Source: a virus. Taken from it: a stretch of DNA of 64,000 bases. The position numbers were made by a program, and so were the translations under genes. Positions 506-23,891 of this stretch are shown here, piece after piece. Under the pieces are notes generated by a model. It searched no databases, was not told the origin of the DNA, and was given only the letters and a program-made list of their open reading frames with translations. The DNA lies in the IMG/VR virus record IMGVR_UViG_3300044548_000056, one strand, 5' to 3'. Every line of letters starts with the position of its first letter. The first letter of the stretch is position 1.

Positions 506-3111
506 ACGTTGCCTAATTCTTCCAAGTACTTAACTCTGTTCGCTACGGATGTGTATTCTTCTACTGAAACGACTGGCGGCGGGGCCATCATCATGCCTTT
601 TGCAACTGCCCTTGCAAGCATATCCTCCCCAATGGTTTGGTTAGAGGATGAAGTAGTGTTGATGTTGATCGGAACACCGCCACCCATCATATTGAATGAT
701 GATAAGAGCGGACTAAACATGCTTGTTGCGGCAGCAGTTAAAACACTCTCGCCATTTGATAGCATTGCGGGGATTGAATCACTGGTCGATGTGCCAGGCC
801 CGGTAACCTCACCTCCCTGTGCAAATTTAGCACTTTTTACTGTTTTTACAGCATTTGCGATGTTAGAAAGTATAGTTGCCACAGTCGTAGCAATAGCGGC
901 TAGATTTAAAGGGAATGGCTTTCCTGCAGCAGCTTTTACACCCTCGGCAACAGCAACCCCCGAATTTATAGCTATCTGCGCCAATGCTAGTACTTTTGAT
1001 GCCATAGCCAACGACTTATCAGATTCACCGATAGCCTCGGTTAGAGATATAAGTCCCCCGGTTATCTCGGACATGGACTGTAACTTGGCCTGTTCAATAT
1101 CTATCTCTTTTTCTGCAAGAGCCTGCTTCGAATCGTTATACTCATTCTGCACTTTCAACTTCCGAAGGTTAAAGGCGTCAATACTCTCCCCTTCTAGTTG
1201 CTGCATGGTATTTAGTTCTGTGAGTTTCTGTTCCATCTTGACACGGAGCACTTCCTCTTCATTACCATGCGCCTGTTCTATCTCCATCTCAAAACGGGTC
1301 TTTATGGCATCCTGCTGTTTTTTAAGGATGTCATCATCATGTTTAGCGGAAAGGTCATCAATCTGCTTATTATACTTTTGAGTGATGGCTAGTTTCATTT
1401 GCTCTGTAAGTTCTTTCTGTGATAACTCCGCATTACGTTGGGTAATGAGCTGCTGCATCTTTAACTGGTATTCCTGTTCGCTCCCGACTTTTACAGAAGC
1501 TAATTGCGTCTCAATGAGTTTCTGACGGTCTGCAATCTCCTTTGCCAATTGTTCATCTGATAATTTAGCTAGAGCATCCTTCTTCTGCTGTTCAATGGAA
1601 ACGATCTGCTTTCTAATGGCTTCCCTAGCAGATTTGGTAAGATCAGTTTCGTTTTTTAACCTGCGCTTTAAATCCTCCACTTGACGGTTGTACTGGTAAT
1701 TGACTTCTTTTGTCTGCTGTAATCGCTTGTCTTTAACCAGTTTCAGCATTTCATCCTCGGCCTTACGTACCTCGGCTATCTCTTTATCACGAATAGCCTT
1801 TGCCTGTTCTGCCGCTTGCTTCTTGGCATCAAGAGCCGATTTTTCGGCAGACTTATTTTCATTGATAACTTCTATTTCTTGCTCCTTCAGTCTGCGCGTT
1901 TTATCAAAATATTCTTTTTGAGCATTATATACATTTGCTTCCAGTTGTACCAATTCCTCATTTGTTTTCTTCTTATTCTTTGACCACCTACTCTCGGTCT
2001 TTAAATTCTCCAATTTCTGTACAGCTATATCTTTATTACGCTTAGCCTGCTGTTCTTCCAATTTATTGGCTTCCCTTACAAAAGCGAGCCGGTCTTTAGC
2101 TGAATATTTTTCTTTATCTTTGGCTTTAACTCTTAATTTTGAAACAGTAAGAGCATCTTTTGCATTCTTCACCGTGTTATCTCGTTCTTGCTCTTCAATA
2201 GCTATTCGTTCTTTTGATAACGCCACAGCTTCACGATTAGCATCATTCATTTCCTTTATATATTTCCCCACACCGGGTATTTTTTCCGCTAAAGAAGCAA
2301 TCCAATTCGTAAATTTTGCACCAACCTCTACAACTGATAAGATACCAGCAGCTAAATTTTGAACTATACTAAGCAAAAAACTTAAAGCTCTGCTTAATGG
2401 AGCTGTTATAACCTTCCACCTATTTGATTCTTCTTCACTTGAATTAATGGCTTTAGCCACCGCCATAACAGCAACAGCAATTCCAGATAATATGGCTACG
2501 ATCGGATTTGCTAATAATGCGAGTAATTGCTTACCAAACGAAGCGACAGCAGATTTGCCAATTGTAAATGCTTTCTGGACACCTCCCATCTCATTCTGCA
2601 TTTGCATGATTTGACCAATAAAAGGGACATTAGATTGAACTGCTCCCAATATGGCAGCTTCATAGTTTCCTACATTTCGATAAAAACGTTGCGTCTCAGC
2701 TTCTGCACCTTTCAACTCATTAGTAACTGAATTTATCTTCTTCTGTAAACCCTGCCCTTTAGAACCTTCACGCTCCTCTTTATTTAACCTATCATAAGCA
2801 GCAGTCAAGTTCGATAATTGAGCACGAAGAGATACTAAACTGCCTTCCTGTTCCTTCTCTACCTTGCGATTATTAGAAACTTCTTTAGATACAGTTCGAA
2901 GAGTTTCGGTATATTCCTTTTCTGCAACTTTTGCCTCACTAAGTTTCAAATTGTATTTATCCCGGCTTATACGCCCCGCATCCAAATCCTCTTTAAGGGT
3001 TTTCTCTAACTTTCTAACGACATCCAACTGCGAACGATAATCAGATATTTTTCTTATCGCATCATCATAACGCACGCGAATATCCAAAATCTTTTCTTGT
3101 ACATTTTCCAT
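502..3111 (-). CDS. Tape measure protein
   Basis: ~870 aa, Ala/Lys/Glu/Gln-rich coiled coil with hydrophobic segments and C-terminal FAQGGEVTGPGTSTSDSIPAMLSNGE motif; likely start ATG 3111 (track start 3141). Confidence 0.85.
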   Translation of the reverse strand: MENVQEKILDIRVRYDDAIRKISDYRSQLDVVRKLEKTLKEDLDAGRISRDKYNLKLSEAKVAEKEYTETLRTVSKEVSNNRKVEKEQEGSLVSLRAQLSNLTAAYDRLNKEEREGSKGQGLQKKINSVTNELKGAEAETQRFYRNVGNYEAAILGAVQSNVPFIGQIMQMQNEMGGVQKAFTIGKSAVASFGKQLLALLANPIVAILSGIAVAVMAVAKAINSSEEESNRWKVITAPLSRALSFLLSIVQNLAAGILSVVEVGAKFTNWIASLAEKIPGVGKYIKEMNDANREAVALSKERIAIEEQERDNTVKNAKDALTVSKLRVKAKDKEKYSAKDRLAFVREANKLEEQQAKRNKDIAVQKLENLKTESRWSKNKKKTNEELVQLEANVYNAQKEYFDKTRRLKEQEIEVINENKSAEKSALDAKKQAAEQAKAIRDKEIAEVRKAEDEMLKLVKDKRLQQTKEVNYQYNRQVEDLKRRLKNETDLTKSAREAIRKQIVSIEQQKKDALAKLSDEQLAKEIADRQKLIETQLASVKVGSEQEYQLKMQQLITQRNAELSQKELTEQMKLAITQKYNKQIDDLSAKHDDDILKKQQDAIKTRFEMEIEQAHGNEEEVLRVKMEQKLTELNTMQQLEGESIDAFNLRKLKVQNEYNDSKQALAEKEIDIEQAKLQSMSEITGGLISLTEAIGESDKSLAMASKVLALAQIAINSGVAVAEGVKAAAGKPFPLNLAAIATTVATILSNIANAVKTVKSAKFAQGGEVTGPGTSTSDSIPAMLSNGESVLTAAATSMFSPLLSSFNMMGGGVPININTTSSSNQTIGEDMLARAVAKGMMMAPPPVVSVEEYTSVANRVKYLEELGNV

Positions 3112-20085: not shown

Positions 20086-20196
20086 TGGGGTAGCCGGGAC
20101 TCGAACCCGGAGTGCTGTTCCGTCTGCTAATAGGCGGCGAATCTTTGTCATATCATCGCTTTACGGTGACTAAATCCAACCTTTCGCCACTACCCC
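20086..20196 (-). ncRNA. tRNA-like RNA with intact acceptor stem and T arm and a non-canonical core
   Basis: GGGGTAG/CTACCCC-A acceptor, CCGGG-TTCGAGT-CCCGG T arm; 111 nt; no 5-bp/7-nt anticodon arm. Confidence 0.65.
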
Positions 20197-21886: not shown

Positions 21887-21906
21887 AATATTATTTTATA
21901 AATTCT

Positions 21907-22077
21907 TTAATAGGACAACTTTTCATTTAAGCTATCTTTGATTGCCATAACATCATCTAATGCGTCATTTATTGCATTATCCGGATTATTACTATGTTTC
22001 AGGTATAAAAAATAAATGTGAAAAAATAATCTTCTGTAATACCAATGATTAAATTTTCGTTTAAGAAGTTGAATCAT
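21907..22077 (-). CDS. Small hypothetical protein (56 aa, below cutoff)
   Basis: Manual translation MIQLLKRKFNHWYYRRLFFHIYFLYLKHSNNPDNAINDALDDVMAIKDSLNEKLSY*; A-rich leader. Confidence 0.6.
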   Translation of the reverse strand: MIQLLKRKFNHWYYRRLFFHIYFLYLKHSNNPDNAINDALDDVMAIKDSLNEKLSY

Positions 22078-22101
22078 GATAAGTTTAAAATTTAATTATT
22101 T

Positions 22102-22675
22102 GTGCCCCGATAACCTACAACGATTTCACGACGGAATGAATATACCGTTCGGGGCGTGTCAGCCAACTTCATTTTAACCCGCTACGATCGAGGACAAGTC
22201 TACTCTCTGTTTACTCGGGTATGCTTCGGAGTTCCTATGTACCTTTCTCTGTACGAACTGCGGCAGATTCTACCGGGCCTGCACCCGTGTCCCTACTAAA
22301 GTCTACTTCTGTTTCAATCTTAAAGACATTCACAGTTCCAAGTCTTTCGGGGTGTGTTGTTTCGGGGTCTCGCCTCCCCTGTCCGAATAAGGCCGGACAC
22401 CTTTGTAGTTCCCGTTTCCCATTAAAGGATAGGCTCGTAGGCCGAACGGGGTTGGCTTATCGCCGCCAAGCGCGTGATTAACGGTTCACTGCAACCTCTA
22501 ACCTCTTTCAGATTCTTCTCTCGAATGGCACATTCTCAAAGGGTTTGCATCGAAAACTAAGCCTTGCGCAATATCTTTAAAAGCTACCCGGACAGGTTGA
22601 ATAATCAGTTGTGCACTTGACTGACATTCCAGTTGACTTTGGCCCGGATTGAGTTCTACCTTTCAGTAGCCTTCT
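22102..22675 (-). ncRNA. Candidate large structured non-coding RNA
   Basis: No ORF of 60 aa or more on the transcribed strand; 10-bp end-closing helix (22157-22166 with 22617-22626); about nine hairpins, several with GNRA loops. Confidence 0.55.
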
Positions 22676-22680
22676 TTATA

Positions 22681-22983
22681 TCAATCACCGACGTAGTGAG
22701 AACCGAAACGGCCTTTGCTATTGGGGTTATAAAATGCGGATGAAGGAATGTTCTTATCATCATATCTACTCCTCTTTGCCTGAACCATATCTTCATAAGG
22801 AGCATTGATTGCTTTAGCAACTTCACGAGTTCTCTTTGCTATATTTTCATCAGAGAAACTGTTTTGAAGTTTTGCAAATCTCCAAGCTGATTTTAAGCAG
22901 TCTGAAAAAGACTTTGCACCGTTTGCTCTTTTATAATTTCTATGAGCACTTTTCATAATCATTGATAAATTGTACTTTTTCAT
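22681..22983 (-). CDS. First gene of the early lytic operon, hypothetical (cro position)
   Basis: MKKYNLSMIMKSAH...; likely start ATG 22983 downstream of the promoter (track start 23031). Confidence 0.75.
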   Translation of the reverse strand: MKKYNLSMIMKSAHRNYKRANGAKSFSDCLKSAWRFAKLQNSFSDENIAKRTREVAKAINAPYEDMVQAKRSRYDDKNIPSSAFYNPNSKGRFGSHYVGD

Positions 22984-23068: not shown

Positions 23069-23150
23069 CAAATATACAAACTGTTAGTTTAAAAACAAAC
23101 TATTAAATAACCTAAGTTAGTTTATTTGCAATATTTAACTAACTGTTAGT
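23069..23150. promoter_or_regulatory. Genetic switch: leftward promoter (-7 TATATTTG 23069-23076, -33 TTTG 23096-23099) with operators ACTAAC-T-GTTAGT
   Basis: 19-nt spacer; perfect operator 23138-23150, one-mismatch copy 23076-23088, half site ending 23121. Confidence 0.75.
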
Positions 23151-23159
23151 ATTACTAAT

Positions 23160-23891
23160 ATGGAAAGCTGGGAAAGGATAAAACTAATAATAGAGAATGA
23201 AAGACTGAATAAAACGTCTTTCAGTAAGGCTATAGGTATCACTAACAATGTTACTATAACTCGAATTATAAATGAGCAACGCACACCATCACTGACTACT
23301 TGTGAAAAGATAGTTAGTGCTTTTCCGCAATATAACCTTAATTGGATATTAACCGGAGAAGGTGAAATGCTCAATAGCAGCATAGAAATACCAGCCACAA
23401 AAATAATATCCAATGAAGAAGAGCTGAAAGAGGCTATTAGCAAGGGTATAAAGTTACTTCCAGAGGTGGACTTCAAGTTTGCTGCCGGACAAGCAGAGCT
23501 CATAAATGGAAAGGAATATGTTAAGAGGTACTGGTTCCTCCCGGACTGCCAAGATTGCGAAGCTGTCGCCCAAATTAGTGGTAGTTCGATGGCTCCAGCC
23601 TACCCCTCTGGCTGTTGGATAGCTTTAAAGAAATATGGATTCAGTTTAGATACAGCTACGCAAATCCCCTTTGGTAATGTTTTTGGAGTAGTTGTAGAAG
23701 ATCAGTTCACGGGTGAATACCACGGACATATTAAAGTATTACGTAGATACCAAGATCAAACCTTATCACGTAAATTTTGGATCGCACATTCTCTAAATGC
23801 TGCAGAGTTTGATGACTTCGATATTGAAATAACACAAGTTCGTAGTCTTTGGATAGTAAAACAACACATTGTAAGCGACGTATTATTATGA
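23160..23891 (+). CDS. cI-like repressor (HTH + S24 peptidase-like domain)
   Basis: N-terminal XRE-type HTH; VDFKFAAG linker; ISGSSMAP; divergent from the early operon. Confidence 0.88.
   Translation: MESWERIKLIIENERLNKTSFSKAIGITNNVTITRIINEQRTPSLTTCEKIVSAFPQYNLNWILTGEGEMLNSSIEIPATKIISNEEELKEAISKGIKLLPEVDFKFAAGQAELINGKEYVKRYWFLPDCQDCEAVAQISGSSMAPAYPSGCWIALKKYGFSLDTATQIPFGNVFGVVVEDQFTGEYHGHIKVLRRYQDQTLSRKFWIAHSLNAAEFDDFDIEITQVRSLWIVKQHIVSDVLL

Follow-up and report, generated by a model that had tools for sequence, protein, structure and literature searches.

A predicted modular, multi-domain RNA in the early operon of temperate Bacteroides phages

To our knowledge, large structured RNAs without a known function are rare and have been described mainly from Bacillota. 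ROOL (RF03087) and GOLLD (RF01998) are prophage-borne RNAs of several hundred nucleotides (nt) that contain many helices and junctions, GNRA loops, variable peripheral hairpins and long conserved blocks of unpaired bases; tRNA genes lie near them and no function is known. All of these properties are shared by a 571-nt gene-free region on the minus strand of a 64,000-nt stretch of viral DNA (IMG/VR record IMGVR_UViG_3300044548_000056, hereafter the window), which is the subject of this report. This region differs from ROOL and GOLLD in that it matches no family model (cmscan, E up to 10), in that the host belongs to the Bacteroidota rather than to the Bacillota, in that it lies inside an early operon, where no promoter box belonging to it was found, and in that its modules are shuffled between phages. 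We conclude that the Bacteroides phage RNA is a new family, which resembles the large ornate prophage RNAs in kind and is a member of neither. ROOL and GOLLD have been shown by cryo-electron microscopy to form homo-oligomers (PMC12286853), whereas the Bacteroides RNA is known here from sequence alone.

The HK022 put and lambda nut elements also lie just downstream of an early promoter or of the first early gene, on the sense strand, where they are read through. The RNA described here is, however, 5-8 times larger and multi-domain, and has no motif in common with them. A put-type antiterminator comprises two adjacent stem-loops in about 70 nt, and on architecture this assignment was rejected for a region of 571 nt with at least 15 helices and junctions. 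The c4 RNAs of P1 and P7 and the CI RNA of P4 are about 77-79 nt long and act by base-pairing to repeated targets. Like the present RNA, they are embedded in an immunity or early operon, upstream or in place of antirepressor genes, and are probably cut from a longer transcript with tRNA-type processing nearby. They differ from it in that no Rfam match and no complementary target in the phage were found here; antisense matches to the repeated AGUAGACUU motif within the phage are at chance level. Finally, Fremin et al. (2023; PMC10690425) have listed 8,495 unnamed candidate structured phage RNAs of 29-151 nt from IMG/VR. Both the data source and the type of evidence (intergenic covariation in gut phages) are shared with our study, and single modules of the present RNA (the three-way junction, A or D; see Table 1) may be among these candidates, which, compared by description only, are not placed in a larger architecture.

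An earlier reading of the window (the first-pass annotation) had proposed that the minus strand encodes a large structured non-coding RNA, with covariation expected among its homologues, and most of the helices are indeed supported in this way. In a covariance-model alignment of 48 distinct sequences, running from the three-way junction (3WJ) to helix H5, 95.9% of the cells hold standard pairs, compared with 79.6% in shuffles, and 17 of the 27 pairs show changes on both sides. The covariation score of 0.317 (0.116 in shuffles) was reached by none of 500 shuffles, and controls with slid partners gave about 0.05. The closing helix of the 3WJ exists in about 10 distinct, fully complementary versions; all 7 closing pairs, together with all 3 pairs of hairpin a, have changed on both sides. 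For H6-H8, 11 sequences gave 97.2% pairing as against 92.0% in shuffles, with 7 pairs changed on both sides and a score that 0 of 500 shuffles reached, and RNAalifold, applied to 12 sequences of core C, returned 57 pairs of which 14 have changes on both sides. Hairpin D is 99.3% paired, compared with 93.3% in shuffles, its 5 both-side changes all coming from one divergent prophage. In total, more than 25 pairs carry compensatory changes. Many G-U pairs in the helices would be A-C mismatches on the opposite strand and, because these abundant pairs work only on the minus strand, we take it to be the RNA strand. The compensatory changes, which exceed both the shuffled and the slid controls, indicate that positions 22102-22672 (minus strand) hold a real, conserved, multi-domain structured RNA region. 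A possible pairing of the linker with the segment just upstream of the 3WJ gave no signal, the p-values for complementarity over 34 distinct sequences looking uniform.

Several helices drawn in the first-pass annotation are conserved with substitutions. Relatives carry the UUC-GAGA-GAA hairpin with a UCCG/CGGA or UCC/GGA stem and a GAAA, GUAA, GCAA or UUCG loop, and replace UUGGC/GCCAA by CGAC/GUCG and CGGC/GCCG. The three-way junction is described above, and UGUCCG/CGGACA, GGGG/CCCC and GUUC-GUAC..GUAC-GAAC are likewise supported by compensatory changes; GNRA-type loops, as had been noted, are present. For CGGGU/GCCCG the CGGG/CCCG portion is consistent in relatives, although it is invariant and so has no support from covariation. 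Other proposals did not survive. The hairpin CUACU-GAAA-GGUAG is not conserved, its 5' arm pairing instead with GUAGCU in helix P1 of module A, and AAAGAC/GUCUUU relies on an insertion of 14-17 nt unique to the window. A 10-bp helix (with one G-U pair) was thought to join the ends, but 60 of 60 dinucleotide shuffles contain a stem of at least 10 bp when G-U is allowed, and only 7 bp recur, unchanged, in a single relative (L003). The internal repeat is real, and both copies are kept in most lineages, although the second copy has been replaced in the cultured Bacteroides phage BS-TP3 and in L122.

The absence of a sense open reading frame (ORF) of 60 amino acids (aa) or more was also confirmed: the longest within the region are 32 and 30 aa, and those in relatives do not exceed 71 aa. 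So too was the elevated GC content, which is 0.49-0.52 across 22100-22599 with flanks of 0.24-0.34 and 0.26-0.32. Antisense ORFs of 50-92 aa are present in most lineages. Because their frame differs between lineages, and because the indels among relatives are not multiples of three and break reading frames, the region is judged to be non-coding; a protein-coding region or a set of small ORFs was rejected, no reading frame being kept across relatives.

The RNA family is uncatalogued, as had been surmised. Rfam 15 cmscan returned 0 matches in the whole window at gathering thresholds and only one chance miRNA match for 21900-22900 at E up to 10; nothing relevant was found in the RNA regions of relatives or at the chromosomal loci with D-like hairpins discussed below. 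All Rfam 15 families, including tRNA, tmRNA, RNase P, 6S, group I and II introns, OLE, HEARO, raiA and C4, were therefore rejected for want of a covariance-model match, and we did not find this RNA described in the literature. The UG27 reverse-transcriptase non-coding RNA arrays of Bacteroides prophages (bioRxiv 10.64898/2026.09.22.753630) were rejected as well. This RNA does not consist of repeated units in an array, and neither a reverse transcriptase nor a nuclease-guide protein turned up when 20 ORFs of the window were compared with Pfam or PHROGs (about 20 other phage ORFs were left unscanned).

The first-pass annotation had envisaged one closed fold of 520-570 nt. The conserved unit is instead a module chain: BS-TP3 has only the 3' part, of about 380 nt, and homologues of D serve as apparent chromosomal leaders. 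To judge from the relatives, the region is a chain of independently recombining modules that have been swapped between phages. Table 1 lists the modules and the neighbouring features. Module A combines a conserved 5' internal loop, RAAAGGU, with a variable apical hairpin, GUCAGU/ACUGAU. Its helix P1 occurs in five versions in relatives (AGCUGC/GCAGCU, AUUCGC/GCGAAU, ACCCUC/GAGGGU, AGCUAC/GUAGCU and UUUCGC/GCGAAA), as does P2 (for example UCGGU/ACCGA). Module B, which precedes C-, E- and F-type cores, has three covarying hairpins, and one of its tetraloops varies among GAGA, AAAA, GAAA, GUAA, GCAA and UUCG. Core C contains long invariant blocks of unpaired bases, and because of these blocks we suspect tertiary contacts or a bound partner.

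Table 1. Positions of the RNA modules and neighbouring features in the window, and of D-like copies on chromosomes
Feature	Position	Strand	Remark
CI-like repressor gene	23160-23891	+	PHROG phrog_4 match; divergent from early operon
Bacteroides-type -7 box TATATTTG, candidate early lytic operon promoter	23069-23076	-	Consensus match only; faces CI-like repressor gene
100-aa gene, first of early operon	22681-22983	-	Upstream neighbour of RNA
Gene-free RNA region, 571 nt	22102-22672	-	Directly after 100-aa gene
Module A	22581-22672	-	Begins 8 nt past stop codon of 100-aa gene
Module A outer helix P1	AGGCUAC 22666-22672 with GUAGCUU 22581-22587	-	Covarying
Module A helix P2	CCGGGC 22642-22647 with GUCCGG 22588-22593	-	Covarying
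Module B	22452-22571	-	8 distinct homologues (nhmmer)
Module B hairpin UUC-GAGA-GAA	22516-22525	-	Covarying stem
Module B conserved single strand GAAUCUGAAAGAGG	22502-22515	-	
Module B hairpin GGUU..AACC	22483-22496	-	
Module B hairpin UUGGC-GGCGAUAA-GCCAA	22452-22469	-	Covarying stem
Three-way junction (3WJ)	22411-22450	-	Closing helix CCCGUU/AACGGG
3WJ mini-hairpin GGC-CUACGA-GCC	22432-22443	-	
3WJ mini-hairpin CC-UUUAAU-GG	22418-22429	-	
Core C	22171-22410	-	Helices H3-H8
H3 UGUCCG/CGGACA	22380-22399	-	Core C
H4 GGGG/CCCC	22364-22379	-	Core C
H5 CCGA/UUGG	22338-22350	-	Core C
Window-specific insertion	22314-22333	-	Core C
Internal repeat copy 1	22299-22313	-	Core C
H6 CGGG-UGCAGG-CCCG	22274-22287	-	Core C; invariant
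H7	22227-22262	-	Core C
H8 ACCCG/CGGGU	~22216-22220 with 22175-22179	-	Core C; encloses repeat copy 2
Internal repeat copy 2	22196-22211	-	Inside H8
A-rich linker UAAAAUGAAGUUGGCUGACAC	22156-22176	-	Between H8 and D; GUAAAAU part nearly invariant
Hairpin D	22102-22155	-	Ends region
tRNA-like element	20086-20196	-	Rfam tRNA model 27.6 bits, cut-off 29, E = 0.0014; outside RNA region
Chromosomal D-like copies	L280 1501-1575; L281 1501-1579; L282 1501-1572 and 2601-2675		

The modules are found in many combinations. The order is 3WJ-C-D in BS-TP3, 3WJ'-B-3WJ-C-D in L002, A-ORF-3WJ-C-D in L071 and L083, A-E-D in L003, B-3WJ-E-D in L132, A-B-3WJ-F-tRNA in L270 and A-3WJ-F-tRNA in L016 and others; an ORF follows module A in L073 as well. 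What stays constant is the progression from 3WJ to core to D or a tRNA. In one F-type relative (L016, about 2990-3030), hairpin b of the 3WJ is replaced by tandem CUGCCAUUGA copies (GUGCUUGCCAUUGUGUCUGCCAUUGAACCUGCCAUUGAAUGG), in what resembles the expansion of a local repeat within a conserved junction.

Hairpin D calls for separate comment. It has a 7-bp outer stem, GCCCCGA/UCGGGGC, and an inner stem, ACGG/CCGU, followed by the conserved 3' single strand GAAAUCGUUGUAGGUUA and then AC. No U-tract follows it, and the next ORF begins 25 nt past it (ATG at 22077); in phages, D always stands about 20-45 nt before the next ATG. Three compensated versions of the outer stem are known, GCCCCGA/UCGGGGC, GCGCGGA/UCCGCGC and UCCCUGC/GCAGGGA, of which the last is chromosomal. 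It comes from D-like hairpins on Bacteroides chromosomes (genomes G513 and G410), outside any phage context, with the sequence UCCCUGC..ACGGUU..UUCCGU..AAUCGUUGGAGAUUG..GCAGGGA. In three of the four chromosomal copies the hairpin is followed, after 10-15 nt, by the start codon of a gene, and the three genes are unrelated; for the fourth copy (L282 2601-2675) no ORF was found within 90 nt. Because the chromosomal homologues sit so close to start codons, because phage D keeps a similar place before an ATG and because the U-tract is lacking, D is probably the leader of the downstream gene rather than the 3' end of a large RNA.

The RNA is kept in temperate Bacteroides phages, in prophages and in gut metagenomes. 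A blastn search of 50,697 phage records found one isolate, BS-TP3 (PQ571276.1), where a divergent repressor is followed downstream by one gene and then, directly, by an unannotated gap that holds the match. Pattern scans located the core motif in 39 IMG/VR contigs, and further copies in one Bacteroides genome (B. ihuae) and in two Bacteroides metagenome-assembled genomes. Of 120 matches returned for hairpin D, about 18 come from other environments and look like chance; when these are discounted, more than 100 gut-metagenome contigs carry it. The most widespread module is the 3WJ, the model of which matches 17 of the 151 Bacteroides-genus genomes searched; the D model matches 8/151 genomes in the genus and 2/151 in the order, and the full core was found by blastn in 1 of 401 genomes of the family, these sets being samples in which a missing match means not found in the genomes searched. 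Relatives of the 100-aa protein are encoded by 328 IMG/VR stretches. A homologue of this small protein stands directly upstream in 130 of the 151 D-bearing loci with enough upstream DNA, and at least one of the others (L084) has a diverged homologue. Many phages possess the small protein without the RNA.

The phage genome is circular, of about 42,776 bp, and is read 1.5 times in the window: ORF coordinates recur with that period (374 vs 43150), and positions 1-21224 are repeated at 42777-64000. The RNA was said to lie one gene downstream of the lytic promoter, and this agrees with the only -7 box that we found, a consensus match upstream of the 100-aa gene, with no second Bacteroides-type box between it and the RNA region. 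On the 3' side, all on the minus strand, are small ORFs, a helix-turn-helix or sigma-like regulator and a Sak4-like annealing protein; these downstream genes vary from phage to phage, and no conserved terminators were identified 3' of the region. Neither a promoter box nor a terminator of its own was found for the RNA region. Because the -7 box occurs only upstream of the small gene and no U-tract follows D, co-transcription with the early operon is the likely arrangement.

In the family of the 100-aa protein the N-terminal motif (..IM..AH..Y...L...W..AK) is invariant, and a second motif at the C-terminus (YNPNS.G..G.HYVGD) is conserved and probably disordered. An AlphaFold2 model (predicted local distance difference test score 76) shows three N-terminal helices and a disordered C-terminus. 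Searches of Pfam, PHROGs and PDB profiles gave nothing significant, Foldseek found no PDB match for the model, and the ESM Atlas yielded a distant lead to Phage_Gp111. In four relatives that lack the RNA (L005, L038, L054 and L075), Rha (PF09669) or KilA-N plus ANT (PF04383, PF03374) follows directly after the small-protein homologue, as determined by Pfam scans of these four representatives, with the groups assigned by ORF coordinates. Rha and KilA-N/ANT are classic antirepressor-type genes.

A tRNA mimic about 2 kb from the RNA had also been reported. It corresponds to a tRNA-like element about 1.9 kb downstream in the same operon, whose acceptor stem and T arm are perfect but whose D-arm region contains 39 inserted nt; ARAGORN passes over it and finds neither tRNA nor tmRNA on the phage. 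Relatives have true tRNAs, and similarly long tRNA-like matches, at the same relative place in the operon. F-type relatives have a tRNA in place of D, with more tRNAs and tRNA-like elements further down the operon. From this arrangement, processing of the early transcript at tRNA or tRNA-like points is plausible.

The reading that we tentatively favor, while granting it less than an even chance, is that the early transcript yields a free B-3WJ-C body with a function in trans. The region would be transcribed within an early polycistronic RNA, which would be cut in the A-rich linker or, in F-type relatives, at the tRNA that replaces D. This cut would free B-3WJ-C as a stable, compactly folded RNA, which might be a scaffold for some factor of the phage or the host, or a decoy for it, in the lysis-lysogeny switch or in early lytic growth; its genomic place is the one that Rha or KilA-N/ANT genes take in sibling phages. 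D would remain on the downstream mRNA as a 5' leader, stabilising it or aiding its translation, and module A would be a separate element linked to the upstream small gene.

A number of observations weigh against this proposal. A string of independent cis elements would account for the free shuffling of modules just as well as one trans-acting RNA would. That antirepressor genes take the same slot may reflect plain phage mosaicism, and the 100-aa protein has no recognisable RNA-binding fold. Core C is represented by about six sequence lineages, and the H6 and GCAGA/UCUGC helices never vary, so that covariation offers no evidence for them. Single-sequence folding of the whole region (-167.7 kcal/mol, z = -0.51) is unremarkable beside shuffled controls. 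Public RNA runs that contain the BS-TP3 version are no guide here: they yield assembled contigs of flat depth with no transcript ends, and DNA carry-over is possible in them.

Alternatively, the RNA may control transcription in cis, modifying RNA polymerase, perhaps together with the small basic protein encoded upstream, so that downstream terminators are read through as with lambda N/nut or HK022 put. This would suit an RNA that directly follows the first gene of the early operon, in the sense orientation, and almost always has the small gene as its neighbour; the variation in downstream genes would also mean that any control is gene-independent. Nevertheless, we regard this as unlikely: at 380-570 nt and with interchangeable cores, the region is much larger than put (about 70 nt) or nut (about 30 nt), many phages have the protein without the RNA, the N-terminus of the protein is predicted to be well folded, unlike N, and conserved terminators on which such a mechanism would act were not identified downstream.

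There is a similarly small chance that the modules are independent cis elements of the mRNA with no joint function, namely translation leaders, processing sites and stabilisers of the 5' or 3' end, set at intervals along the early polycistronic transcript. Modules do occur alone and in many orders, D-like hairpins stand directly before unrelated chromosomal genes, an ORF can directly follow module A, and D can give way to a tRNA, a classic signal for processing. However, the core, with its roughly 240 nt, multi-helix junctions and long invariant stretches of unpaired bases, far exceeds the needs of a stabiliser, and the order from 3WJ to core to D is fixed.

An anti-defence RNA, which would occupy a host immune factor as a decoy or sponge and whose core an arms race would diversify, seems distinctly improbable. 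The RNA is accessory, in that many relatives with the small gene lack it, and rare in genomes; its core is swapped (C, E variants, F) between otherwise similar flanks; and it holds an immediate-early operon position near tRNA-like genes. Against this, Rfam cmscan revealed no likeness to a known defence RNA or repeat, and the idea derives purely from context. More doubtful still is the notion that B-3WJ-C does the job of an antirepressor protein, as a compact particle, released from the first lytic transcript and possibly self-assembling like ROOL and GOLLD, that captures the CI-like repressor or another regulator of host or phage. If true, it would explain both the slot shared with Rha and KilA-N/ANT and the swapping of cores between phages of different specificity; the only lead toward self-assembly is the loop of H6, UGCAG, which is invariant and partly palindromic. 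Finally, the GC-rich island followed by AT-rich DNA and the antisense ORFs might be cited for a site that works as DNA (an origin, or a site of packaging or recombination) or for several small protein genes. Either is highly improbable, given the strand-specific G-U pairs, the compensatory changes and the broken and inconstant antisense frames.

The release of a trans-acting B-3WJ-C body, like its alternatives, can be approached experimentally, since BS-TP3, which carries the 3WJ-C-D form, grows in culture on B. salyersiae BG8 and makes genetics, end mapping and structure work feasible. The RNA adds a large-RNA family from Bacteroides, the dominant genus of the human gut. Its modularity is unusual, with a fixed 3WJ and D around interchangeable cores and a tRNA as an alternative 3' end, and this feature, combined with the antirepressor slot beside the immunity region, leads to concrete hypotheses on RNA-based control of lysis and lysogeny.

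The chromosomal leaders that resemble D may point to an undescribed Bacteroides 5' untranslated region element. A small hairpin with a GUAA loop precedes 3 of the 4 copies. From their N-terminal sequences only, with no family-library scan, the three genes that start just behind a D-like copy look like those for a GH92-type glycosidase, for a protein with RHS repeats and for a protein with a signal peptide, and the last of these follows a gene that we took to be SusD-like. Between the two D-like copies of L282 (about 700-1100, in the minus-strand reading) there are about 10 tandem repeats of GGTGGGACTTCTTTCCCAA-like units.

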